From the IMG/VR virus record IMGVR_UViG_3300029581_000002: a stretch of DNA of 64,000 nucleotides. One strand, written 5' to 3'. A model generated the notes under the pieces. That model was not told where the DNA came from. It searched no databases and saw only the letters and a program-made list of their open reading frames with translations. The DNA is from a virus (taxonomy: Duplodnaviria; Heunggongvirae; Uroviricota; Caudoviricetes). This document shows positions 11,769-63,988 of the stretch, piece after piece. Every line of letters begins with the position of its first letter. Within the stretch, counting starts at the first letter, position 1. Made by a program: the position numbers and the translations under genes.

Positions 11769-12180
11769 TCCAAGAATATTTAGTAACCTGGGACTTCTCT
11801 GTCTTATATTTACTTAATAAGAAAGGGATGTCAGATTGAATACATTTATGGCTAAATGTGTTCTTTGGTATAGGTTTGTTGGTCTTTGGATTCATTTTAC
11901 CAGTAGTAAAGTTACCACCCTTTACATACACGACCAGAGTTCCAGGAATAGGAATAGATTTGGCAGGAGCCGGCCATTGATAACTTGGAGCGGGGAATCG
12001 TCTATAGCGTTTCCACAACTTACGTTCTTTAGGAGTTTTACTCCACACACTTGGGTCACGTGGTGTTACAGACGGCTGTCTTAAATGCTCTGCCACCATG
12101 AAAGCATCATCGGTCAAATCCTTGATTCTTAGTCTTTTGAATCTCTCCTCTGGAGTCTCTTTGATAGTTTCCTTCTTCAT
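11722..12180 (-). CDS. hypothetical protein
   Basis: 152-aa ORF. Confidence 0.35.
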   Translation of the reverse strand: MKKETIKETPEERFKRLRIKDLTDDAFMVAEHLRQPSVTPRDPSVWSKTPKERKLWKRYRRFPAPSYQWPAPAKSIPIPGTLVVYVKGGNFTTGKMNPKTNKPIPKNTFSHKCIQSDIPFLLSKYKTEKSQVTKYSWNGKTYAPDCLPFWGR

Positions 12181-12390: not shown

Positions 12391-12663
12391 TTAAATTCCT
12401 TTAGTTAACTCTTCTAATCTAGTTACTTCTTGTTTGTAATCTTGAATATATTCTTTCAGAGACATGGCATCTGGGTGCTTACACTCTATTCTATAATCCG
12501 CTATTCTTTGAAGACATGCAGATATGGGAAGTCCATAACCAATTACTTTAAACTCCTGACGTTCTCCGTCCTTAGATTTAATAGTCTTTAGTATAGATAG
12601 GTCCCAGAAGTGTAAATTGTCACCTACAGATTCCATTCTAAAGTCAGCTTCTTCAATAATCAT
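12391..12663 (-). CDS. hypothetical protein
   Basis: 90-aa ORF. Confidence 0.35.
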   Translation of the reverse strand: MIIEEADFRMESVGDNLHFWDLSILKTIKSKDGERQEFKVIGYGLPISACLQRIADYRIECKHPDAMSLKEYIQDYKQEVTRLEELTKGI

Positions 12664-12692
12664 ACTTGATTATCCGTAAAGTTAGTATTAGT

Positions 12693-13625: not shown

Positions 13626-13837
13626 TCACTAGAGTAGACCTTACCTCATTAGAAGTAAAGAATAATCTAATAACTAATCTGAATTTGACCCTAAACGGCA
13701 GTACGAATATCGTTCTGCGCGATTAGCACTACATTAAATATAACGTAGCCTAAAGTCCGTTATCATAGATGATAACAATAATACCAAGGATTGGCATTAG
13801 GTGTGTTGCTAGGAGCAACGAAGAAGAGCCTACATCC

Positions 13838-13846
13838 CCCCCCCAG
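13838..13846. repeat. C9 homopolymer (G9 on the transcribed minus strand) in the intergenic/promoter region
   Basis: Direct count of 9 consecutive C in an AT-rich background. It lies upstream of the minus-strand gene starting at 13625. Confidence 0.9.
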
Positions 13847-13897
13847 TGATATTCTGGCTGGAATGTCTATTCCATAACCTATCACCATACATAAGAA

Positions 13898-29078: not shown

Positions 29079-30146
29079 CTAAACTAACTTATCGAATATC
29101 ATGGGCTGTATCGACATCCATAAATTTGCTAGCATTTCTCGCTCTGCGTCAGATGCTTCATCCCAATGTGATACGTACAATTTCTCCGTTCGTTCATTCC
29201 TATAAGGAACCTTAAATGAACGGTTAATGCGTACACTGTGTGCGAATAGGTCTTTGTCGAAATCAATAGCCCTAAGCGTCTTCTGGAAATCGTTGAACTT
29301 ATTATTAGGGTCATCGACATCCCTAACAGACATTCCAGAAGGAAACGGGCCGTTACCATGCCTTGTTATATAAGGACGAGTTACATAACAAGTTTGGATT
29401 TCTTTACGTATACCTGCTTTCCGCAACAGCTCGTAAGCGTTTTGTGAAGTTGTATTAGACGGAGTACAATAAGGCATTATGCCGAATCTTTGGTCAAGCA
29501 ATATTCCCTGTGAACCTTCAAACACTAGGTTATCATAATTCAACAAGCAATCTTCATTAACCGTACCTGTATGTAAGAAATAAGCATGTGCTAACCTACA
29601 CCAGTTGTCTAGGTCTATCGAAGGATATTTACTAGACATGTTGTAATAGTTATCCACTATGGCATTTAGTTTCTCACGCAGTATGTAAGGATTCATACAA
29701 TCTACAACTGTTAAGCTGTATCCTGCCTTAACCCGGTCCAAACAAGCTTTAAACCCTGTACCTACAGTACCATGTCGTAAGTTCTCTTCGTTATTAACTT
29801 GGGAATAGACATCGAAGGGAATTACAACTTGGCAGTGAGGGTGATACTGAACAATGGGATGAACTCCCATTTTAGCTAAGTCTGCACCCTCCAACATAGA
29901 GGTAATTGGGTCTACAGTACAGTATTCGGACCAGTACGTCGGCACTCCAAGTAAGGTTCCGCTGCCAAAGTTACTAAAGGTGTGCATCATGTCTCCATGC
30001 TTTACAGTATGTCCTACTTGATGTCCACCACTAAACCTGACTACTAACACAGACTCTCGCTTACCTATGTACTTGTTACATAAGTTGTGAACTGTCTGTC
30101 CCTTACCTTCGTCTCCAAAGAATGTTCCTAATACAATACTAATCAT
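29079..30146 (-). CDS. adenylosuccinate synthetase family protein (PurA/PurZ-like, short form)
   Basis: VLGTFFGDEGKGQ (PurA P-loop GDEGKGK), FSGGHQVGHT (YQGGHNAGHT) and FEGSQGILLD...MPYCTPSNTT (FEGAQGTLLD...YPYVTSSNTT). At 355 aa it is about 75 aa shorter than cellular PurA, as phage PurZ enzymes are. Confidence 0.65.
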   Translation of the reverse strand: MISIVLGTFFGDEGKGQTVHNLCNKYIGKRESVLVVRFSGGHQVGHTVKHGDMMHTFSNFGSGTLLGVPTYWSEYCTVDPITSMLEGADLAKMGVHPIVQYHPHCQVVIPFDVYSQVNNEENLRHGTVGTGFKACLDRVKAGYSLTVVDCMNPYILREKLNAIVDNYYNMSSKYPSIDLDNWCRLAHAYFLHTGTVNEDCLLNYDNLVFEGSQGILLDQRFGIMPYCTPSNTTSQNAYELLRKAGIRKEIQTCYVTRPYITRHGNGPFPSGMSVRDVDDPNNKFNDFQKTLRAIDFDKDLFAHSVRINRSFKVPYRNERTEKLYVSHWDEASDAEREMLANLWMSIQPMIFDKLV

Positions 30147-33723: not shown

Positions 33724-33775
33724 AATTCTAATAATTAGGTTAATAATGATTTTCGCAAACTCTTATTAGCCAGCG

Positions 33776-33863
33776 CGGAGAGTGCTGGATTCGAACCAGC
33801 GGAACCCTTTTGAGGTTCGGTCCCTTAGCAGGGGACTGGTTTAAGCCACTCACCCAACTCTCC
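33776..33863 (-). tRNA. tRNA-Ser(GCT)
   Basis: Type II: acceptor GGAGAGT, anticodon stem GTCCC/GGGAC with loop CTGCTAA, long variable arm, T arm GCTGG TTCGAAT CCAGC. Confidence 0.7.
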
Positions 33864-33950: not shown

Positions 33951-35912
33951 TTACTTTACAGGAGGAAAATTATCACCTTTAGCTGGTGATTCTTCTGGCT
34001 TCTTGCCAGTGATTATTTGCTTAAGCGAATCTGCAATGGGCAAATTGCGAGCAATTTCCAAGCTTGGAGCAAGATTCTTAGCCATATTAGCCATGAACTG
34101 CCCAGCAGTATTGGAATCACCATACACAGTAACATTACCAAGCTGGATATGTTCAAACACCTTAGCGTTGGCTTCAGCAACTTCTTTCCACCTGTCGGTC
34201 ATTGCATATTGAACGATTGCTTCAGGATGCATACCTGATTTAATCATATGTTCAACTGCAAGAGCCGGAGCCATTTCCATTGCCTGTTTCTGTTCAGCTT
34301 CTGCCATTAAAGATGCTTTCTTACCTTCAGCTTCAGCAAGAAGTTTCTTCTTGGTACCTTCAGCTTCTGCTTCCAGTTGCATCTTAGTAGCATTTGCTTT
34401 AGCTTCTGCTGCTTTCAAGATTTTAGCTGCTTCCGCTTCTGCTTCAAGAATGGCTACACTCTTAACAGCTTCTGCTTCAATTTTAGCTTTCTCTTTGGCT
34501 TTCTCGGCAGGTATAATTACTTCAGCTTTAAGCTTAGCTTCTTCAGCTTTAGCTTTAGCTTCGTTAACTTCCACCTGACGTTCTTGCTCTGTTTTAGCAA
34601 CTGCCATTTGAGCTTCAACTTTAGAAGTACCAGCTACTCTTTCTGCTTCAGCTTTAGCTTTCTCTGCTTCTCCCTTAGCTTTGGAAACTTCAATAGTAGC
34701 TTTCTGTTCAGCTACTCCTGCTGCTTTCTCTGCTTCAGCTGCCTTTTGACGGGCTTCTGATTCATACTGTGCAGTTTTAGCTTCCTTTTCCTGCTGTGCT
34801 TTAACAGTTTCAGCTTCTTGGTTTTGTGCTGCTACTGCCATACGAACTTCCTTCTCTGCTTCTGCTTCTGCCTTAGCGGCTTCAGCTTTGGCAGTAAATT
34901 CTGCTTCTTTAGCAGTTGCATAAGCTTGCTGCTCTGCAATCTTAGCAGCTCTTAATGCTTCTTGCTCGGCAACTTTGGATGCTTCTTCAGTTTGGGCTGT
35001 AGCCACACCAATTTCACGTTCCTTTCTTTGCTCTGCAACAGCAATTTGCTGCTCCTTATGCTGCTCGGCCAATTGAGTTTCTTTCTCTTTAGTGGTCTTA
35101 GCAATAGCAACTTCTTTCTCCCTGTTAGTTTCAGCCACTATAGTTTCTTGCTCCTTAGTAGCTGCTGCAATTGCAATCTCCTTCTCTCTCGTAGTTTGAG
35201 CTATCTGGATTGCTCCTTTCTTCTCTTCTTCTGCGATATCAGCTTGTGATTGCGCTCTTGCTTTAGTCTCTTCTTTCTTACCAAGATTATCAATATATTG
35301 AGCAGCATCTTGAATGTCACTGATATTGATATTCATCAGATAAAGACCAAGTTTGTTCAATTCTGTATTGATATTGTCTCTAGCTTGAGCTAGGAACTTG
35401 TCTCTGTCAGAGTTAAGCTCTTCAATAGTCATCGAAGCAATAACAAGCCTCATCTGACCATAAACAATATCTGAAATCAAACTTTCTTTAACGTCATCAT
35501 CAGCACCTAGTAAGCGATTAGCAGCATTCTGCATAATCAGCGGTTCTTGGCTAATAGCAACAGTTACAGTGGTAGGGATAGTTACACGAATATTTTGAGC
35601 TGACAAAGCATTCTTCAATACAAGATTCAATTGAATCGGCTGCATTGACATTACTTCATAACCCTGTATAATCGGCCATACAAAAGCTGCACCACCATGA
35701 TAAACTTTGGCAGTTTTAATTTCAACTTCTCTGTCAACCAGATTACCTTTAGCGTCGCGTTCGCTAACTTTCTCTTTGTGAGAGCCTGTTTTACCATAAA
35801 CTACCAACAATTCGTCAGATTTACATTTACGGTAGCGGGATAGAATCCCAATGATAGTGATGATTGCAACTAGTACAACTACACCAACGATAATTAATGA
35901 TGTCATTTCCAT
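33951..35912 (-). CDS. flotillin/SPFH (band-7) family membrane protein
   Basis: N-terminal TM helix, an SPFH-like domain, then about 300 aa of A/E/K-rich coiled coil (EAEAEK repeats) as in YqiK/FloT. Confidence 0.6.
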   Translation of the reverse strand: MEMTSLIIVGVVVLVAIITIIGILSRYRKCKSDELLVVYGKTGSHKEKVSERDAKGNLVDREVEIKTAKVYHGGAAFVWPIIQGYEVMSMQPIQLNLVLKNALSAQNIRVTIPTTVTVAISQEPLIMQNAANRLLGADDDVKESLISDIVYGQMRLVIASMTIEELNSDRDKFLAQARDNINTELNKLGLYLMNINISDIQDAAQYIDNLGKKEETKARAQSQADIAEEEKKGAIQIAQTTREKEIAIAAATKEQETIVAETNREKEVAIAKTTKEKETQLAEQHKEQQIAVAEQRKEREIGVATAQTEEASKVAEQEALRAAKIAEQQAYATAKEAEFTAKAEAAKAEAEAEKEVRMAVAAQNQEAETVKAQQEKEAKTAQYESEARQKAAEAEKAAGVAEQKATIEVSKAKGEAEKAKAEAERVAGTSKVEAQMAVAKTEQERQVEVNEAKAKAEEAKLKAEVIIPAEKAKEKAKIEAEAVKSVAILEAEAEAAKILKAAEAKANATKMQLEAEAEGTKKKLLAEAEGKKASLMAEAEQKQAMEMAPALAVEHMIKSGMHPEAIVQYAMTDRWKEVAEANAKVFEHIQLGNVTVYGDSNTAGQFMANMAKNLAPSLEIARNLPIADSLKQIITGKKPEESPAKGDNFPPVK

Positions 35913-55734: not shown

Positions 55735-55971
55735 ATGACAGGAGAAGAAATTATAGTAACATTTAAAGAGCCTTGGTATAATGATTATACCAGACGATTA
55801 TACACTCAATTATCTGAACAAATGATTAGAGAAGAGATTGAGAGAGTGCATAAAGAACCAATCATTACTAATACTGCATTTGATATAGCAGTAGACAAGG
55901 CTTTCTTAGAGTTACTGCATGACAACAAGGATTTAATTAATATCACAGAACGATACAAGAACCATGAGTAA
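55735..55971 (+). CDS. hypothetical protein
   Basis: The ORF track starts at a TTG (55702). The first ATG is at 55735 (MTGEEIIV..). Confidence 0.35.
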   Translation: MTGEEIIVTFKEPWYNDYTRRLYTQLSEQMIREEIERVHKEPIITNTAFDIAVDKAFLELLHDNKDLINITERYKNHE

Positions 55972-56026
55972 AATAGCAACAGAATTAGAAGCTAAGACTA
56001 TGGGGGGGGACTCTCTCGGTAATTGA
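55964..56026 (+). CDS. leader ORF MSKIATELEAKTMGGDSLGN ending just after the G8 tract; in -1 register to the downstream ORF
   Basis: Manual translation. Deleting one G from G8 (56002..56009) fuses it in frame to the ORF that is open from 55989 to 56609. Confidence 0.4.
   Translation: MSKIATELEAKTMGGDSLGN
56002..56009 (+). repeat. G8 homopolymer at the leader/main-ORF junction
   Basis: Direct count of eight G. Confidence 0.9.
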
Positions 56027-56177
56027 TAATAAGTGCTGTACTAAAGCTAGAGCACTTGAATTAGGATGTCAGATTAAAAGTGGATTTAGTTATACTGATA
56101 ATCAGTTAGTAGAGTTAGAAGGTATAGAGGCAGCTATAACTGCTCCAAATGTAATCCTTCATTATGGTTGGCAGGAT

Positions 56178-56609
56178 ATGCCAATTAATAATATACAGCA
56201 ATTTAGAGTACGTTTCTCATTTGTTAATGAGAGTTCAGTGAATGGAGAGCCGTTTAAGTATTCTGACAATACTATGTACTTTACAATTACTCCAAGATTA
56301 GAGCAAGGAGAACGAACGTACACTAAGACTTTAGCAAATCCTCTTAAATATTACTTAGAGAAATTAGCACCTTCTAACCAAGACCCATATAATACACCTG
56401 TTTGGATACGTTTTGAGGGATACATGATGCTTAAGCAAGTGTCTCAAATTACATTAGCAGTAGATTCTCAATCTGAGAATTGGGCAGAAGGAGTAACATT
56501 TCCTTCATCTGGAAAGTGGGTCAAAATGAATAATTCTGGTAGAGTACTTAGATTTACTGGTGGGGAAACAGACCTAAACATAGAACTGTATACAGCATCA
56601 GCGCAATGA
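56178..56609 (+). CDS. hypothetical protein; frame open upstream to 55989 with no ATG, likely the main body of a G-tract-controlled gene
   Basis: 143 aa from the first ATG. The upstream in-frame 63 codons carry no start codon. Confidence 0.45.
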   Translation: MPINNIQQFRVRFSFVNESSVNGEPFKYSDNTMYFTITPRLEQGERTYTKTLANPLKYYLEKLAPSNQDPYNTPVWIRFEGYMMLKQVSQITLAVDSQSENWAEGVTFPSSGKWVKMNNSGRVLRFTGGETDLNIELYTASAQ

Positions 56610-56803
56610 TTAAAGTAACTGATAATAAAGAAGTAAAGGAAACAGTCCTAGCAGGACTTAAAAGGAATAAAGAGAAGTATGGTAAGAAGTATTGTCCATG
56701 CTCTTTAGTAAGAGATGAAGATACAGTATGTATGTGTAAAGAGTTTAGGGAAATGGAAGAAGGGACTTGCCATTGCCAACTTTATGTTAAAACTAAAGAC
56801 TAA
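56606..56803 (+). CDS. ferredoxin-thioredoxin-reductase catalytic-subunit-like Cys-rich protein
   Basis: YCPC(x11)CMC(x11)CHC mirrors the CPC...CHC arrangement of the FtrC/FTR catalytic chain. Confidence 0.4.
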   Translation: MIKVTDNKEVKETVLAGLKRNKEKYGKKYCPCSLVRDEDTVCMCKEFREMEEGTCHCQLYVKTKD

Positions 56804-56808
56804 TAATT

Positions 56809-56979
56809 ATGGATGAATTAAAGAACCAATTAGCACAGTATTTATGTAGCCAAATTCATAATGGCACTAAGGATTTGATTGAATTAATTGAATCAGAAGA
56901 CCTTATTAATGAACAGTGGTATAAGAACTGGAAGGAAGAGATGAGAATCTTACTACAGGAGAAGTAATTATGATAATAC
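56809..56979 (+). CDS. small hypothetical protein (56 aa)
   Basis: Manual ORF MDELKNQLAQYLCSQIHNGTKDLIELIESEDLINEQWYKNWKEEMRILLQEK. Confidence 0.3.
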
Positions 56980-57209
56980 TTAGTGGAAATTGTCCTAGGC
57001 ATCATAATGCCATTATGTTGGAACTTACAGACTTTGATGACAGTAAAATTTCCTATCTAGCTAGAATATCTAGAGGACATCATGTTGATACTCTGTTAGT
57101 TCCTAGGGAATATAAAGATACATTTGAATCTACAGAACTATATAAAGTATTACTGCCTAATATTAGTATAGGTGATGTACAATTTGCTAAAATATACTAT
57201 TATGATTGA
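56970..57209 (+). CDS. hypothetical protein
   Basis: 79-aa ORF. Confidence 0.35.
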   Translation: MIILSGNCPRHHNAIMLELTDFDDSKISYLARISRGHHVDTLLVPREYKDTFESTELYKVLLPNISIGDVQFAKIYYYD

Positions 57210-57432
57210 CGTTAGAAAGACATTAGAGAATTTACATCAGATACTTCCAAACTTATCAATAGAGGACTTATTTAGAGTTCTTGATAACATAGTAGAGATT
57301 CCACAATTTAACGTAGGACAGACAACTACTATACGTAGAGATAATAGTGGCTGGAGACCATATGACACAGGTACATTTATATCTTATGCTAGTAATGGAA
57401 TAACACTTAGTGATGAAGGAACTTGTAAATAA
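57172..57432 (+). CDS. hypothetical protein
   Basis: 86-aa ORF. Confidence 0.35.
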   Translation: MMYNLLKYTIMIDVRKTLENLHQILPNLSIEDLFRVLDNIVEIPQFNVGQTTTIRRDNSGWRPYDTGTFISYASNGITLSDEGTCK

Positions 57433-57619
57433 CTGGAATGAGAAACATCCCGAATACGTATTGGTACACGGGATGTATTCTTATGTAGACAATGGACAAT
57501 CTAAGGATATGCACATGCTTACTATCTTTAATAAGGATAATGAATGTGTATGTGAATATAAAGGAGAAGATTTTATTAAATTATATAATACATTAGAAGA
57601 AGAATGGGAAAGCGATTAA
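57410..57619 (+). CDS. hypothetical protein
   Basis: 69-aa ORF. Confidence 0.35.
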   Translation: MMKELVNNWNEKHPEYVLVHGMYSYVDNGQSKDMHMLTIFNKDNECVCEYKGEDFIKLYNTLEEEWESD

Positions 57620-58284
57620 TTAATGTTGATGAAGTGGAGGAGATAGTACCTGTCCTAGTAGGCAAATTACTAGAGAACAATTTGATAACGGAGGAACAAG
57701 CGGACCAAATCATCTGTGCAATCTTTAATGATAACGATAGGCTAAATGAAATTAGGGAATTAAATCCAGATTATGATATTAGTATGCATAAGCTGAATGT
57801 TTGCGTGGGAGATAGTCAGTATAGACTAGTGTATTGTATATATGTAGAGCATAAAGAATCTGGGATAAGTGTGTATAGGGACAAGGACTTCGATGTACAG
57901 GAAGTGATAAACAGACTTCCATCTAAATTCACAATAGAGAAAGAACAAGAGTTGCTTCCTAAAGGAGTAAATATAAAGATTCATAAATACTCTATTAACT
58001 GTGCAGTAAGTCTATTTAGCAACGCTGCTGACTACTTTAAAGACCATACAGTAAATATAACTATTAGTTATCCATTAAAGAATCCGTATACATTCACTGC
58101 TAAATGCCGCAATTTGAATGATTTAATAAATGAAATAACCCTTGCATATAGAAGGATTTACGAAGAAGAGAAGGAGAATCCAGGTAAGTATGGAATATGG
58201 GGACATCATATAGAAGATTTATGGCTTGAGAAAGCTACTCTCGATATAGAGACTGGTAATGTTAAAATACTTGTAGGTAGTTAA
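57604..58284 (+). CDS. hypothetical protein
   Basis: 226-aa ORF. Confidence 0.45.
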   Translation: MGKRLINVDEVEEIVPVLVGKLLENNLITEEQADQIICAIFNDNDRLNEIRELNPDYDISMHKLNVCVGDSQYRLVYCIYVEHKESGISVYRDKDFDVQEVINRLPSKFTIEKEQELLPKGVNIKIHKYSINCAVSLFSNAADYFKDHTVNITISYPLKNPYTFTAKCRNLNDLINEITLAYRRIYEEEKENPGKYGIWGHHIEDLWLEKATLDIETGNVKILVGS

Positions 58285-58285
58285 T

Positions 58286-58567
58286 ATGGATAATAAATTA
58301 AATGTACAGAAACTAGGATATGAAGTAGGAGAACCTATGTGGGTTCATTGGGACGATAGATACGTATGGCGTGGAGGACATATACTAGGAAAATGCCCAG
58401 ATGAGAATTTGATAACCACAGTGGGCTACTTGGCATATATGGATGATAAATCAATAATATTGGGAAGAGGTATTGAGAATCATTGTGATGAGGACGGTAC
58501 TCGCAGAGTAAAAGATACAATACACATACCAATGAGCTTAGTAGCTAGTTTTGGAAGTTTTGATTGA
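58286..58567 (+). CDS. hypothetical protein
   Basis: 93-aa ORF. Confidence 0.4.
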   Translation: MDNKLNVQKLGYEVGEPMWVHWDDRYVWRGGHILGKCPDENLITTVGYLAYMDDKSIILGRGIENHCDEDGTRRVKDTIHIPMSLVASFGSFD

Positions 58568-58573
58568 TGAACT

Positions 58574-59428
58574 ATGATAAATGAGGAGTATAATAAATGG
58601 CTAATCCTTTACTTTGATATGCAATCTATAAATTTACAGTTCAATTGTAATGATATAGCATCATCACTAAAGGCACAAAGAGATAAGATAAAACAATTCT
58701 GTATTGACTGTCTAACAGGAGTAAAATATCAGGCTGACAGCTTTCTATTTGACACAAATGCCTGCATATTCTCTACTCCCGAAACTAGAGAGCTATTGTT
58801 CTCGCATGAAGAATATCTCATTCTTGAGGCTGATACTACTAAAGTAGTTGACGGAAAGTATCCCTTAGACTACGCTAACGAAATAGTAGAATCTAATTTG
58901 GACACTATTATTGACTATATAGTACAATCAGGAACAGAAACATACAATGATAGAACCAGTAGAGGATTTGGGAATAGGTGGAGTCCTTATAATGAGGAGG
59001 AACGTAAACAAGTAATTAAACTGTTTAACTCTGGAACTTGGTATGATACACTTGGGTCCTTAAAGCATTTATATTATGAAAGAACCCCCAAAGGCTTAAG
59101 AATGTGTAACCTGACTGGCGAACCCTTACAAGCCAATGTTCTAGAACATATAGAAGATATTATTTTGAACATAAAAGACCATTATGAAACATTTGCCGTT
59201 GTTCCTAGAGGTAAATCTAAATTACAAGTTTATATGACAATTAGCAATGGAACAAATGGGGCTGAAGGATGTATTATTAATTCTATGGAAGATGTTCTAA
59301 ATGTGCTTAAAAACTTAAGGAAATATAAAGGAGTAAATTGGTCACAGCTACTAGAAGTTGGGACAGATAATGCAGATGATTTATATTGGTGGTACGTGAC
59401 ATTCTCTATAGACACTACGGCTGTGTAA
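58574..59428 (+). CDS. hypothetical protein
   Basis: 284-aa ORF. Confidence 0.45.
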   Translation: MINEEYNKWLILYFDMQSINLQFNCNDIASSLKAQRDKIKQFCIDCLTGVKYQADSFLFDTNACIFSTPETRELLFSHEEYLILEADTTKVVDGKYPLDYANEIVESNLDTIIDYIVQSGTETYNDRTSRGFGNRWSPYNEEERKQVIKLFNSGTWYDTLGSLKHLYYERTPKGLRMCNLTGEPLQANVLEHIEDIILNIKDHYETFAVVPRGKSKLQVYMTISNGTNGAEGCIINSMEDVLNVLKNLRKYKGVNWSQLLEVGTDNADDLYWWYVTFSIDTTAV

Positions 59429-59443
59429 TAAATTAATATAAAT

Positions 59444-59704
59444 ATGAGCAAATGGAATGACTGGGCAATTACTACTAAATTCCCACCTATAAAGCCAGGT
59501 TACGGTATGAATTGTAGAACGGATTATAAAATAGATGTAGTATTTAAAGTACGTACAGGTAAGGGATATTGGAGAGGAAGTAAGTATCTTTATGTATGCA
59601 ATAATAACACTATTTACTTGTTAGGTTCAGATGCAGGAATACATCACGTAACAGAAGAGTTACCTAGTAACCTTGAAGCTAAAGTCCGTGAGTATAAACC
59701 TTAA
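59444..59704 (+). CDS. hypothetical protein
   Basis: 86-aa ORF starting MSKW. Confidence 0.4.
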   Translation: MSKWNDWAITTKFPPIKPGYGMNCRTDYKIDVVFKVRTGKGYWRGSKYLYVCNNNTIYLLGSDAGIHHVTEELPSNLEAKVREYKP

Positions 59705-59724
59705 ATGAATTAATATGAATTAAT

Positions 59725-60093
59725 ATGAATTGTAAATTAAAACGTAAAGACTTAGTACTTATTAAATGGAATAGCAAGTACATGACTGATAGAGAAGGAT
59801 GCAGTCTATCAGAAGATGTTAAATATTTAAATAGAGATATAGAAACAAGTACAGTAGGTTACTTCATAGAAGAAGATGATAAAGCTATTGTACTTGCTTC
59901 AAGTATTTATGGTATTAATATACCTGATTCATTATGTAAGGATTGTATGGTAATTCCTAAAGCCTATATAAAAGATATAACTTCGATTGGCACAGAGCTT
60001 GTTGCTCAGCTCTTATATTTCTTACAACAACGTAATTACATTACAGAAGAGCAAATGAATGATGCATGTAATGAGATTCTAAAATCAAATTAA
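59725..60093 (+). CDS. hypothetical protein
   Basis: 122-aa ORF. Its start codon sits inside a triple tandem atgaattaat / atgaattaat / atgaattgta repeat. Confidence 0.4.
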   Translation: MNCKLKRKDLVLIKWNSKYMTDREGCSLSEDVKYLNRDIETSTVGYFIEEDDKAIVLASSIYGINIPDSLCKDCMVIPKAYIKDITSIGTELVAQLLYFLQQRNYITEEQMNDACNEILKSN

Positions 60094-60094
60094 T

Positions 60095-60340
60095 ATGACT
60101 AATGAACAATTAAATCAATACTATAGTAAAGATGCAGATAAGAAACAGTGTTGGGTAAGTAAAGACCATAACTGCCCATTAAAGGAACAATGCAATGGAC
60201 TTGTTAAGCCAGAATGTAAAGAGCATATAGACAATGAAGACGCCTGCCATGCTATTGATAAGATGATAGAATGGTATTACCAAGTAAAAGAACCTGAATT
60301 TCTAAAGTTCTATAATTGTCACTTAGAGATGATTAAGTAA
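60095..60340 (+). CDS. hypothetical Cys-rich protein
   Basis: 81-aa ORF with a C..C....C....C..H.C pattern. Confidence 0.35.
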   Translation: MTNEQLNQYYSKDADKKQCWVSKDHNCPLKEQCNGLVKPECKEHIDNEDACHAIDKMIEWYYQVKEPEFLKFYNCHLEMIK

Positions 60341-60625
60341 CTTTACATACTAAATAAAAGAAGCAACCCGTTTTACATCTGGGTTGCCAGTGGATGCTAG
60401 GCACAAAGCCTAAGATAGTTTTTACGTCTTCGTCTTGGTGGTCTACACCAGTGCGCTCTGACGTATTCCCACTTACCGAGACGGAATCTCCAGTAAGCAT
60501 GGACAAAGACGGTCTTTGCTATCTCCATAATTAACACCTCCTTTCTATGATTTAATTCAATCTCGGAAGTTGAGGTGCAATTATGGTGATGCAAATATAG
60601 TAATTAAATTAATATAACAATAAAT

Positions 60626-60727
60626 ATGAGTAAAATAGTAACACAAGACAAACTGAATGAATTAACAGGTAAGAATATAGATTATGGGAAGGGGGGGGTA
60701 TTGTCCTCATTACCAAACCATAGTTAG
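60626..60727 (+). CDS. leader ORF MSKIVTQDKLNELTGKNIDYGKGG.. running through the G8 tract, out of frame with the main ORF
   Basis: Manual translation. One G fewer fuses it to the 60684 ORF after ..YGKGG. Confidence 0.4.
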   Translation: MSKIVTQDKLNELTGKNIDYGKGGVLSSLPNHS

Positions 60728-61697
60728 TCTCTGGGGTAGCGTAGTTGCGTCTAGTAACTACCAGCCAAATCAATTAGTTAAAGAAGAAGATATAGTTGTA
60801 GACAAAGACCTATTCCTTATTAATGCGGAGACAGGTAGTTTATACTTTGCTGGCGGTGGTACCTATGCTCAAATTCCAGCTATAGACGGCCATGAGGATT
60901 TTATGTACATAGCTGGAGGAGGTGAAGCAATTGGAGCATTGTCTATGCTTGGAGGATTGTATGTAGTTAATCAGTCTACCAAACAGTGGGAATTAAAATA
61001 CAAAGATACTGTAAGAGCTTATGGTTATGCTCACTTGGCTAGATTCTCTACTGGCTGGATATTTTATAAGGGAGCAGGAGGAGACGGTAAGAACTATGTT
61101 ATTATAGTATATGATAATGGCACGACAAAGGAGTTAAGCGTCGTAAGTAATGTCCACAGCATATCAACTGGGCCTTATAATTACTGCTGCGTTGGAGTAC
61201 TATATCAGGGAGGGGCTAGGATATATACCTTCTTAGCTACGTCTGCGCCAGATTCTCTTACTTATTATACTCCGGGAATGTTTACACCAAATGCAGTAAT
61301 ACAGGGGGATTATGCTTCACCAAGAGGTATAGTATATAGCACTACTAGTAATTACACATACTTTAGTGCTAATCCAACTGGAACTCAATGGACTGCTGCA
61401 ACCACTAGACCACAACTAACTGCTTTGACTAAAGGTTTGTATGCAAATGCCGAGTTTATGCTTATAGGAGGTAACATGAAGAGCGTGTCTACAGACGGAG
61501 GTCAGAATTGGACTACCTCTACACTAGGCGCATACACTCTTACTGATTTAATATATGTAGATTCAAATTGGTATGCAATTGGTTCGAATGGAACTAAAAG
61601 ACTCCTATTGCAGAATACAGCTTCTACATTTGACCAAAGTAATAAAATACTTGACTTGCCTGACTATTCTAGACAAGTAATTAAGATTAACGTATAA
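60684..61697 (+). CDS. G/T/S/Y/N-rich beta-type protein, candidate tail fibre/receptor-binding protein
   Basis: 337 aa with the composition and GGG/TT/SS runs typical of fibre proteins. The ATG at 60684 is in frame only in the G8 state. The gene is followed by a bidirectional terminator. Confidence 0.45.
   Translation: MGRGGYCPHYQTIVSLWGSVVASSNYQPNQLVKEEDIVVDKDLFLINAETGSLYFAGGGTYAQIPAIDGHEDFMYIAGGGEAIGALSMLGGLYVVNQSTKQWELKYKDTVRAYGYAHLARFSTGWIFYKGAGGDGKNYVIIVYDNGTTKELSVVSNVHSISTGPYNYCCVGVLYQGGARIYTFLATSAPDSLTYYTPGMFTPNAVIQGDYASPRGIVYSTTSNYTYFSANPTGTQWTAATTRPQLTALTKGLYANAEFMLIGGNMKSVSTDGGQNWTTSTLGAYTLTDLIYVDSNWYAIGSNGTKRLLLQNTASTFDQSNKILDLPDYSRQVIKINV
60691..60698 (+). repeat. G8 homopolymer inside the start region of the fibre-like gene
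   Basis: Direct count of eight G. Confidence 0.9.
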
Positions 61698-61713
61698 TAA
61701 GTTAATATAATAA

Positions 61714-61757
61714 AAGCCCGAACTTAGTTTAATTACTAGGCTCGGGCTTGTTTTATT
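61714..61757. terminator. bidirectional rho-independent terminator between convergent genes
   Basis: aagcccga ... tcgggctt stem followed by gttttatt. The reverse strand also has a T-rich tail. Confidence 0.65.
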
Positions 61758-61762
61758 AGAAA

Positions 61763-63988
61763 CTATTTATTCTTAAATTTAGCATTAGATACTTTAATAA
61801 TATCTTCGTTATAAGCGGCTTCCGGGTCAAAGATGACTGGTTTACCGTTAAGCATACCTACATTCTCTGTGGTAATATCTCCGACTGTAATCTTGGAGTT
61901 CTTATAGGATGAATCATTAATTCTAGTCCATCCTTTAGCTTCAAACATCCTTGCCAACTCGTCAAGTACACTCATCTTTTTAATAGGCCCTACTTTGGTT
62001 TGAGTAAACACTGGATACATTCCATTCTCTCCTTGTAAGTAACCTTGAAGCTCAGTAGGCACTGCTCCAGGTACCTCATCTCTAGCTCTATACATTCTAA
62101 GACCTTCACGTAATTCATCCAAAGTTTTATACCCTCCTTCGGTTGGTTTGTACACTTTAACTACTTTAGTCGGGTCTGTCTTATGTTTAAACACCACATG
62201 CTTAGTTCCTTGTGTAGGGAGAATTTCTCCAAAGATGTCTCCAGTAGGTTCGAAGATACCATCTACCATTGTAGCTGTTCCTATCTTAGGATATGGATTG
62301 TTCTCAGTTGGGATAACTGTCTTACCAGTTGGCTTATGAGTCATAGTACCATTCTTCAAGTCATCTCTAAGACTAAAGATTACTTGATTGTTAGAGTATC
62401 CATTATCATATACATTGTTAAAGATTACTCCATCTGCGCCCATTTTATCTGCTGCTCGCTCTAATGCTGCTCTATTAGGTACATCACCTACAGTAACTAT
62501 AGGTCTCTCCAACTCCAAGTCTCCTTCCACTCTATAAGGTCTCTTAGCAAATCTGTCTCTAGCCGCAGCTGCCTTCTCAGCTTTACCTGGAACAGAGTGG
62601 TTAGCTGCTGTTCTAGGATTACCTACTTTACCTTGATACCATATACCAGCTTCAGGAGCACCTTCGTAAACAGCATCCCATCTTTCTGGGCTATGCAATT
62701 GTAGTTTGTTGGAAGTATTAGCATCGTGTGTTACATGTATGGATTTCCTAGGTCCCCAACCTACATTATTGGGCAATGGTTTAACTGAAGGAGTTCCTTT
62801 GTCTATAGTCTTACTAATTACTCTAGCTCTAGCCCATTTGTTACCGCCTATTGCTAGGTCCTCTACTGGTTTGAGTCCGGGTCCAAACTTATTAAAACCA
62901 TGCAATCCTATATACGAACCAGGGTTAGTAAGTTCTGCAAAGATGGGATTCATCCCAGCACTAGTCATCATATCTCCCCATGTATTATATTTGCCCTTAC
63001 TTAGTTCCCTAGTAGCTTCATCAACTGTTGTACTGCCTATAGCTCCACTTAACACTGGAAGCGGTCCAAACATTGCACCTGTTAATAATGTACTAACATA
63101 AGGTGCAGCTTCTCTCCTTCCTCTATCTACAGCTCCTGCTAGATTAATATTCCTAGGAGTAACTGTTACTTCTGGTAAAGTTACATTATTCATACCATTC
63201 TCATTATTAACTGGCAATACTATATTACCTCTCTTATCATAACCTCCCATATATTTAATAGGTTGTGCAGGTTCTTGATATTTAATAATACCACCTGCTT
63301 TGAAACTATTATACACACCTCTTAATGAATTGGCATACTCCTTAGCTTCTGCATATCTTCTCTTACCTTTATTAGAACCAGTAAGCTTAGCTACAAACTT
63401 ATTAATATCATCATTCTCATCAAAGTCATATAGTCTCTTTAAGAATTGTATCTTATCTGCTGCATACTCATCCATAGAATTATAAGACCTAAACTTCTGC
63501 TTAATAGCTTCACCTTTAGCATTTTTATCATTACCAGTTACATAATCACCTTTCCATGAACTACCAGTAGTTAAATTGCCAAAGTTGTACTTACCTTGTG
63601 CAGATTTACCCCAACTAGATTCTAATGCGTCTTGTGCTAATAACATTCTAATTGCATTATCATTAGTAATACCTGCCTTCTTATAGGCATTAATAAGTTC
63701 TGTAGACCATTGTCTTCTGTTAGTATATGGACTCTTCCAAGTTGAGTTGGCAGTAACAGGTTTATCGGTAACAGGTTTACTAGCTACTGGTTTATTAATT
63801 ACTGGCTCTGCTGTAGGATTATTAGCTACTACATCAGTTTCATTAGTATCTCTTACTGGTACTACTAATGCTTCAGGTGTATTATAAACTGTATTATAAT
63901 TATACTCACTAAATGGATTAGTTGGATTAGTAATATCAGTGTAATCTATTGTAGGATTACTTACTGGATTATAACTAACAAATCTCAT
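61763..63988 (-). CDS. virion-associated peptidoglycan hydrolase (glucosaminidase/GH73-like domain) with large C-terminal extension
   Basis: AQDALESSWGKSAQGKYNFGNL matches the FlgJ/mannosyl-glycoprotein endo-beta-N-acetylglucosaminidase motif (A.ESGWG.S....NN.FG). The frame is still open at the window edge, so the true start may lie beyond 64000. Confidence 0.6.
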   Translation of the reverse strand: MRFVSYNPVSNPTIDYTDITNPTNPFSEYNYNTVYNTPEALVVPVRDTNETDVVANNPTAEPVINKPVASKPVTDKPVTANSTWKSPYTNRRQWSTELINAYKKAGITNDNAIRMLLAQDALESSWGKSAQGKYNFGNLTTGSSWKGDYVTGNDKNAKGEAIKQKFRSYNSMDEYAADKIQFLKRLYDFDENDDINKFVAKLTGSNKGKRRYAEAKEYANSLRGVYNSFKAGGIIKYQEPAQPIKYMGGYDKRGNIVLPVNNENGMNNVTLPEVTVTPRNINLAGAVDRGRREAAPYVSTLLTGAMFGPLPVLSGAIGSTTVDEATRELSKGKYNTWGDMMTSAGMNPIFAELTNPGSYIGLHGFNKFGPGLKPVEDLAIGGNKWARARVISKTIDKGTPSVKPLPNNVGWGPRKSIHVTHDANTSNKLQLHSPERWDAVYEGAPEAGIWYQGKVGNPRTAANHSVPGKAEKAAAARDRFAKRPYRVEGDLELERPIVTVGDVPNRAALERAADKMGADGVIFNNVYDNGYSNNQVIFSLRDDLKNGTMTHKPTGKTVIPTENNPYPKIGTATMVDGIFEPTGDIFGEILPTQGTKHVVFKHKTDPTKVVKVYKPTEGGYKTLDELREGLRMYRARDEVPGAVPTELQGYLQGENGMYPVFTQTKVGPIKKMSVLDELARMFEAKGWTRINDSSYKNSKITVGDITTENVGMLNGKPVIFDPEAAYNEDIIKVSNAKFKNK

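Follow-up and report, generated by a model that had tools for sequence, protein, structure and literature searches.

Length-variable poly-G tracts in a conserved N-terminal module point to phase-variable genes in a lineage of human-gut phages

The 64,000-nt stretch of the IMG/VR virus record IMGVR_UViG_3300029581_000002 (Caudoviricetes) that was analysed here, referred to as the window, comes from a human-gut phage with a genome of ~180 kb. It contains three genes, termed c1, c2 and c3, in which a run of eight or nine G residues located 38–65 nt past the start codon separates the beginning of the open reading frame (ORF) from a body that lies in another frame. Slipped-strand phase variation at five or more such loci per genome is the best explanation of these tracts, with a probability of about 0.8. 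The tracts are non-random, selected and hypervariable between near-identical genomes, and all three frames occur. We further infer that switching takes place at a high rate within one phage population, and that it alters the interaction with the host.

The c1 leader, which consists of the start codon and the first 12–13 codons (MSKIATELEAKTM) of a conserved N-terminal module, occupies positions 55964..56001 on the + strand and is nearly invariant in ~50 relatives. It is followed by a tract of eight G residues (G8) at 56002..56009 (+), encoding the Gly-Gly(-Gly) of an Ile-Gly-Gly (IGG) motif of the protein family, and by a body at 56010..56609 (+) of 199 codons and a stop, which comprises the remainder of the module to ~56137 and then an immunoglobulin-like (Ig-like) beta-sandwich C-terminal domain. 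With G8 the gene is OFF: reading from the ATG at 55964 through 56002-56009 yields MSKIATELEAKTMGGDSLGN and then a stop. The downstream frame has a TAG at 55986-55988, is open from 55989 to the stop codon at 56607-56609, and contains no ATG, GTG or TTG start before 56178, the position of its first ATG, 63 codons in. Changing the run length in silico produced a continuous protein of 214 amino acids (aa) at G7 and of 215 aa at G10, which are the ON states, and leader and body are also continuous in natural ON proteins, e.g., P0121.

The c2 leader (MSKIVTQDKLNELTGKNIDYGK; 60626..60690, +) is a diverged copy of the same module start, and is followed by a G8 tract at 60691..60698 (+) and a body at 60699..61697 (+) that encodes the remaining part of the module (YCPHYQ...NQLVKEEDIVV) and a seven-bladed beta-propeller. 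At G8, the ATG at 60626 gives a product of only 33 aa, and the in silico change to G7 or G10 restores continuous proteins of 356 and 357 aa, respectively. The leader also contains an alternative in-frame ATG at 60684, from which the body is in frame at G8, allowing a 337-aa product without the first 19 residues; such forms have been annotated by public gene callers. An earlier note on this DNA, made from its letters alone, had described the c1 leader running from 55964 into G8 and an early stop, the open frame downstream (55989-56609) with its late first ATG, the fusion of the two by removing one G or adding two, and a second copy with an MSKI(A/V)T-type start, G8 and the same frame requirement. 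These descriptions were confirmed in the sequence, the second copy being c2.

The third tract, absent from the earlier note and added by this analysis, is a C9 run on the + strand at 13836..13844, that is, G9 in the c3 gene on the − strand. The c3 leader (MYGDRLWNRHSSQNIT; 13845..13892, −) is conserved in 20 relatives, and the body (13750..13835, −) encodes a hydrophobic tail, (D)VGSSSLLLATHLMPILGIIVIIYDNGL, that ends at the stop codon. The gene is OFF at G9 and would be ON at G7 or G10. Among the relatives, three differences are synonymous in the hydrophobic frame, and the changes are non-synonymous in the alternative frame; because the changes are synonymous in it, the hydrophobic frame is supported as the coding one. 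The c3 ORF may encode a small membrane peptide of ~46 aa; it bears a tract yet falls outside the family defined by the N-terminal module. Its tract ranges from G6 to G12 across the 20 relatives, with about 6 of 21 copies ON.

A chance origin of the tracts is excluded. In the window there are three G/C runs of at least 8 (length 8–9), for which a first-order Markov model predicts 0.04 (G) and 0.13 (C); all other G/C runs are at most 5 long, with none of length 6–7. Runs of A or T do not exceed 6, versus ~7 A runs and ~14 T runs of at least 7 expected. Relatives 20 kb in length display the same homopolymer depletion, and their G/C runs of at least 6 are confined to the tract genes. In addition, GGG is the rarest Gly codon of the window (41 of 616), GGG-GGG accounts for one of 39 Gly-Gly dicodons, and a paralog in the focal lineage writes the same AGGGT as GCT GGT GGA GGT. 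Since homopolymers and GGG codons are depleted, the tracts are exceptions in a genome that avoids slippery sequence, and the homopolymer depletion suggests strong selection against slippage-prone sequence in this phage. The earlier note had called a G8 run very unlikely by chance in DNA of about 34% GC; the improbability was borne out by the Markov model, and the GC content of the window is 37.5%.

The c1 tract was compared among 49–50 distinct sequences from IMG/VR and many independent human-gut assemblies. In all relatives it is found at the same site between nearly identical flanks, with lengths from G6 to G10 and a mode of G9; the c2 tract ranges from G8 to G10, also with a mode of G9. Relatives also carry interrupted c1 alleles (GGGGGGAGGG, GGGAGGGGGG and G9A) that are 'locked' in frame. 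The three frame classes of c1 are represented 18:12:19, which is indistinguishable from uniform (chi-square p = 0.42). The tract differs in 16 of the 23 c1 pairs that are separated by 0–3 substitutions in 597 nt, and in 6 of the 8 pairs with no more than 4 substitutions in 1300 nt of flanks (≥99.7% identical), including a G9/G8/G7 trio. One relative (L009) has an N, marking a scaffold gap, at ~1757, exactly at the c2 tract, and another (L099) is without the c1 tract and the 12 bases that follow it; both fit assemblers struggling with a heterogeneous site. A search of related genomes for leader plus poly-G junctions had been suggested by the earlier note, for which uninterrupted ORFs without a homopolymer would have indicated an error; the opposite was found, a tract of variable length at the same c1 site throughout.

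Outside the tracts, all 27 distinct copies of c1 and c2 have an intact body, free of secondary stops and indels, whatever frame is set by the tract. The ratio of non-synonymous to synonymous substitution rates (dN/dS) is 0.27 for c1 and 0.34 for c2, and falls to 0.05 in the part of the c1 module after the tract, against ~0.95 in the wrong frames; the c2 leader likewise displays three synonymous changes in its own frame among relatives. By these sequence comparisons, the bodies are kept by purifying selection. Many full-length fused proteins are present in public collections, with lengths of 210–219 aa for c1 and 355–358 aa for c2 and with 1–4 Gly residues at the junction. Junction peptides to be expected include TMGGGTLSVIDNK and, for c2, GKGGYCPHYQ, and the c2 junction forms the in-frame series GKG-, GKGG-, GKGGG- and GKGGGG-YCP. 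Shortened public gene calls of 143, 166 and 337 aa match the OFF states.

The shared 'leader' of c1 and c2 is in fact the start of a conserved N-terminal module of ~57 residues, which the earlier note had not recognised. This module is the only common part of the two proteins, which are unrelated over their remaining length (BLASTP E = 6.7). The module has the consensus M(G/S)KIATExEAxxIGGxxxxxxNKCCTKxRAxxLGCxxxxxYxxNQLVxxxDL, and an exhaustive profile search, with MGKIATEQEAxxIGGxGTPxxNKCCTKxRAExLGCxVxGxYxxNQLVQLxDLSK as the resulting consensus, located it in 299 clusters at 50% identity, always at the N-terminus, in proteins of 57–1373 aa. The C-terminal bodies are unrelated between members, and some of the long members carry InlB B-repeat domains. 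Among c1 homologs, residues 1–57 are nearly invariant, and the C-terminal domain drops to 39–61% identity or is replaced; the protein P0198 joins the c1 module to the c2 body in a natural chimera. Searches of Pfam, PHROGs and PDB by sequence gave no match for c1, c2, the paralogs or the module, and megablast and tblastn searches with c1, c2 and the module consensus gave no match in 50,697 INPHARED phage records except for one unannotated fecal contig.

In the module, the tract specifies the Gly residues of the conserved IGG motif. Among the 11 distant members for which DNA was examined, four have a G10–G11 run at the same IGG site in other phages (P0286, P0334 and two neighbouring genes in L107, both OFF), and the other seven write the site with GGA, GGT or GGC codons. 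Because these members and the paralog use non-slippery codons, the G run is a derived and recurrent feature at the DNA level, not forced by the protein. The same phage has at least three further family members or tract-bearing genes, two of them just past the window end as placed by relatives. These two, of 164 aa and 130 aa, contain the module and carry tracts 4 and 5, whose lengths range from G6 to G11, and a 180-aa paralog (MTNKIATEQYLINLAGGGTN...) located nearby has the module and is tract-free; an 80-aa membrane protein and a 750-aa hydrolase protein follow. Tract-bearing or paralog positions in relatives are 11984-11992 (−) and 12663-12671 (−) in L001, 369-1418 in L004 and 10072-10753 in L130. 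The family genes other than c1 and c2 are flanked by the large terminase, endonuclease VII and a small protease-like gene, and on the other side by a large peptidoglycan-hydrolase protein.

In the proposed mechanism, the Gly codons of the IGG motif, written in this lineage as a run of 8–10 G, would allow the nascent and template strands to mispair during replication so that one G is gained or lost. Each gain or loss would bring the body into frame with the start codon or take it out, and each gene would toggle between ON and OFF heritably, reversibly and independently of the others. Because the genes would switch independently, up to 2^5 or more expression states would be mixed in a phage population, a form of bet-hedging. 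Three features expected of a contingency locus are present, namely a slippable run (≥~7 G/C) within an ORF, length polymorphism with conserved flanks, and frame toggling of an intact, selected ORF.

Several points weigh against this interpretation or parts of it. The evidence for tract variation is drawn from comparisons between assemblies, some of low coverage. The fraction of ON copies is ~1/3, no higher than random, and the same fraction would also be expected if tract length were neutral because RNA or ribosomes rescued expression. Disorder is predicted for the tract region, and for this reason variation in the number of Gly residues is probably tolerated and the in-frame lengths are less constrained. 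As to a role in host interaction, the lack of matches in the Pfam, PHROGs and PDB searches counts here as well, the folds of c1 and c2 are generic, and the neighbours of c1 are small accessory-type genes, not an obvious tail module. A scan of GTDB genomes for the host was uninformative, with only two distant matches in metagenome-assembled genomes (Saccharibacteria and Alphaproteobacteria bins, 43–50% identity).

Recoding at the level of expression is an unlikely but still sizeable alternative. If RNA polymerase stuttered on the tract, or the Gly-tRNA slipped by −1 or +1, some full-length protein would be made at any tract length, and the DNA polymorphism would be largely neutral drift. The length of the tracts (8–12) favours this explanation, as do the uniform frame classes without enrichment of ON and the modal G9 of c1 and c2, which needs only a −1 slip on the G run; it could also coexist with switching at the DNA level, adding leaky expression. 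However, all three frame relations are present, including the +1-requiring state of the window, and the tracts lack the canonical X XXY YYZ context and the spacer. No stimulatory RNA structure was found 5–9 nt downstream at c1 (z = +0.18), and the c2 hairpin, which starts ~42 nt downstream, is weak and distant (z = −1.8). The interrupted alleles locked in frame imply that the DNA frame matters. Transcriptional slippage, moreover, is best documented on A/T runs and less so on G runs. A programmed ribosomal frameshift of fixed direction is not supported, because the three frames are equally common and c1 has no stimulatory RNA structure; no one programmed shift would account for all three frame relations. 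The earlier note had proposed phase variation or a programmed frameshift in preference to a sequencing error. Phase variation is strongly supported by the conserved site, the hypervariable length, the intact and selected bodies, the ON proteins and the avoidance of GGG codons and homopolymers elsewhere, the fixed programmed frameshift found no support, and the same features of the relatives bear out the dismissal of an error.

An error of sequencing or assembly, by which the G8 of an uninterrupted ORF would be a miscounted G7 or G10, is very improbable. Homopolymers are error-prone, several of the related contigs have 3–6x coverage, the exact G8 count of the window rests on one assembly, and the N in L009 falls exactly on the c2 tract. 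Nevertheless, every relative has the tract at the same site, with five length values across many independent samples and assemblers, three different loci of the window are all out of frame, and both interrupted alleles and an in-frame Gly series exist. A wrong count in this one assembly would leave the conclusion unchanged. Homopolymers and GGG codons are avoided in the rest of the genome, so that the tracts are a selected feature even if the number of G residues in this assembly is inexact. Even less credible is that the genes are decaying pseudogenes, inactivated by frameshifts once they were no longer needed. Some two-thirds of the assembled copies are out of frame and their function is unassigned, as decay would have it, yet the frameshifts are confined to the tract, the tract is kept across lineages, and the dN/dS values together with the intact bodies exclude pseudogenization.

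The region from c1 to c2, both genes included, has been rearranged among relatives, with at least three gene orders in L002–L011 compared with window positions 55964-61749. The c2 gene is flipped in place in some relatives, L002 and L010 have lost the middle genes, and L003 carries the entire block from c1 to c2 in inverted orientation, joined at the shared ATGAGTA(A/G)AATAG. The break in synteny invariably falls exactly on the leader ATG, at least five unrelated contexts lie upstream of c2, and L016 and L026 keep only a 20-nt leader stub. These arrangements, together with the chimeric P0198, would be expected of a programmed DNA inversion or shufflon in which the shared leader is a recombination site that places alternative bodies behind one promoter and N-terminus, the G tracts being secondary. 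We consider this improbable. The alternative orientations were seen only between diverged lineages and not demonstrably in one population. The leaders are direct repeats in the window, and inverted only in relatives with arrangement B. The prediction for the crossover from arrangement B to C failed, as the sequence upstream of c1 in L003 is different again. A regular-expression search of the window detected no serine-recombinase motif, nor was any recombinase detected among the proteins scanned, which were a subset of the ORFs, and the only integrase-like match, in one relative, was a C-terminal fragment in unrelated sequence. An inversion would also leave the frame problem at the tracts unexplained. 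A Mu-like programmed inversion with crossover at the leader was downgraded on the same grounds, as its junction prediction failed, these searches yielded no invertase and the window leaders are direct repeats. From the sequence comparisons, the rearrangements are read as an exchange of cassettes in the course of evolution, through recombination at the conserved module, alongside the preferred slipped-strand switching at the tracts.

The conserved N-terminal module is combined with variable beta-propeller, Ig-like or InlB-repeat bodies, with no family, structure or annotation match. This architecture of an N-terminal anchor and a swappable domain suggests binding proteins, and we infer that the family proteins are binding or fibre-like components exposed on the virion, to which the module would anchor them; at best, a binding or virion role is about an even bet. 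Alternatively, they may be packaged or injected effectors in which the N-terminal module serves for targeting. In phage T4, the internal proteins have a capsid-targeting sequence in common at the N-terminus and are otherwise unrelated and highly polymorphic. The resemblance to these proteins is one of form only, in the short conserved N-terminus and in a conserved A-x-E that looks like prohead-protease sites; by contrast, the module described here is folded, with ~57 residues, and the bodies are large, beta-rich domains of binding type.

The slippage mechanism itself is already known, both in bacteria and in phages. Campylobacter phages of the genus Fletchervirus harbor hypermutable poly-G tracts with phase variation of receptor-binding genes, as is reported of the work of Sorensen et al. 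(2021, Cell Rep 35:109214). In that system, the runs are phage-encoded and located in the 5' part of several genes, a change of length acts as a frameshift switch, as proposed here, and the system is interpreted as creating diversity of receptor-binding proteins; for the window genes a receptor-binding role is putative. The phage and its proteins are nevertheless unrelated, with no DNA or tblastn match in the INPHARED collection, and because no homology was found the window does not belong to the Fletchervirus lineage. It also differs in its habitat, the human gut, with a host that is probably of Bacteroidota type and not Campylobacter, and in the location of the tract, which here lies within a conserved motif of an N-terminal module shared by a large gene family and is known from sequence alone. 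The poly-G/C contingency loci of Campylobacter, Neisseria and Helicobacter are similar to the proposed system in having a homopolymer of at least 8 near the 5' end of an ORF, slipped-strand mispairing, ON/OFF switching of frame and multiple independent loci, whereas the tracts described here are on a phage genome of lytic type, copied by phage or host machinery, and their targets are not glycosyltransferases or restriction-modification genes.

Phages T2 and T4 and other coliphages have contingency loci that are mostly A runs of 6–9 in ordinary genes, with variants at ~1e-3 to 1e-4 (Gomez, Barrick & Waters, bioRxiv 10.1101/2025.10.21.683753). These share simple-sequence repeats in a phage, reversible frameshifts and the concept of bet-hedging with the system proposed here. 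In contrast, the present genome is purged of such runs and has a few long G tracts at a fixed site of one module, which looks like a dedicated switch. The invertible tail-fibre segments of Mu (G) and P1 (C) and the shufflons (van de Putte 1980; Milman et al. 2023, PMC9881135) have a constant N-terminal part with alternative C-terminal binding domains and junctions at shared 5' sequence, as in c1 and c2. They differ in that neither an invertase nor defined inverted-repeat sites were found here, and that ON and OFF would be set by frameshift and not by orientation.

A 2025 review still considered phage-encoded phase variation 'an exceptional case', known from Campylobacter phages, and experiments have so far demonstrated such a switch in very few phages. 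The novelty here is in the phage lineage and habitat, the uncharacterised protein family, and a switch placed in a module motif that is reused across paralogs and unrelated phages. The results suggest that the same strategy operates in an abundant lineage of uncultured, ~180-kb human-gut phages, and since the tracts also occur in unrelated phages with the same module, it may be much commoner than assumed. More broadly, we tentatively put forward, at somewhat less than even odds, that this is a widespread undescribed family of phage proteins (299 clusters, mostly from uncultured large phages, among them abundant ones of the human gut) with a built-in poly-G switch; at least five independently switching genes in individual phages, with different binding domains, and cassette exchange at the module, would then form a 'phasome' that diversifies the interaction of virion and host in gut phages of Bacteroidota type, mirroring the phase-variable surfaces of the hosts. 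Gene callers split or shorten such genes, which leads to the forms of 143, 166 and 337 aa in databases, and 'frameshifted pseudogenes' at G runs in metagenomes should be neither discarded nor corrected automatically. The module with a G run at its IGG motif offers an easy way to search uncultured phages for candidate host-interaction genes. Should the proteins indeed be receptor-binding or decoration proteins, the switches would bear on the coexistence of phages and hosts in the gut and on host-range prediction for therapy.

Downstream of c2, a GC-rich hairpin (AAAAGCCCGA...TCGGGCTTGTTTT; 61714..61752, no strand assigned) is located between c2 and a convergent gene for a 741-aa protein, and is probably a bidirectional terminator. 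In relatives the hairpin moves together with the c2 cassette, whose boundary is at ~61749. The 741-aa protein (61763-63988, −) has a glucosaminidase domain and a weak match to a polyvalent-protein kinase domain; the DNA of its C-terminal third is not conserved in relatives, in which the homolog has a different domain order. Directly 3' of c1, a 65-aa Cys-rich protein (56606-56803, +) overlaps c1 at ATGA. It matches PF02943, the ferredoxin-thioredoxin reductase beta chain, and is fused to the C-terminus of c1 in some public gene calls.

The window also encodes helicases, an AAA protein, a conserved 670-aa protein (phrog_1735) and 28 predicted tRNAs. No near relative was found among the 50,697 deposited phages; the 670-aa protein has at most ~50% identity (<51%) to any of them, its matches being large myoviruses and a human fecal contig. 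Close relatives (87–99% amino acid identity) are numerous in IMG/VR and in human-gut metagenome assemblies, including probable complete genomes of ~174–186 kb. A Shine-Dalgarno motif is absent at 85 of 86 gene starts, and the upstream regions are A-rich. Starts of this kind, A-rich and without Shine-Dalgarno sites, are the pattern of Bacteroidota, and because the genes lack such sites, a host of Bacteroidota type is suggested.

The 28 tRNA genes are distributed over 14.7–48.3 kb. They include one with the anticodon CTA, of amber-suppressor type and labelled Pyl by ARAGORN (40783-40855, −). Recoding of TAG in the window was rejected by a crude test that covered the window genes only, in which coding coverage rose merely from 0.76 to 0.79, no more than with other stop reassignments. 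At 33760-33863, ARAGORN predicted overlapping tRNAs on opposite strands, Arg-TCG (+) and Ser-GCT (−), and the + call is probably spurious. A short protein of 355 aa (29079-30146, −) is a divergent adenylosuccinate-synthetase homolog that matches a PHROG annotated as PurZ-type and is far under the PurA cut-offs (101 vs 402 bits); it may indicate a genome containing 2-aminoadenine (Z). Finally, the N-terminal 290 residues of a 653-aa protein (33951-35912, −) resemble the flotillin FloT / SPFH scaffold family (E = 1e-35, far short of the curated cut-off), an unusual cargo for a phage.

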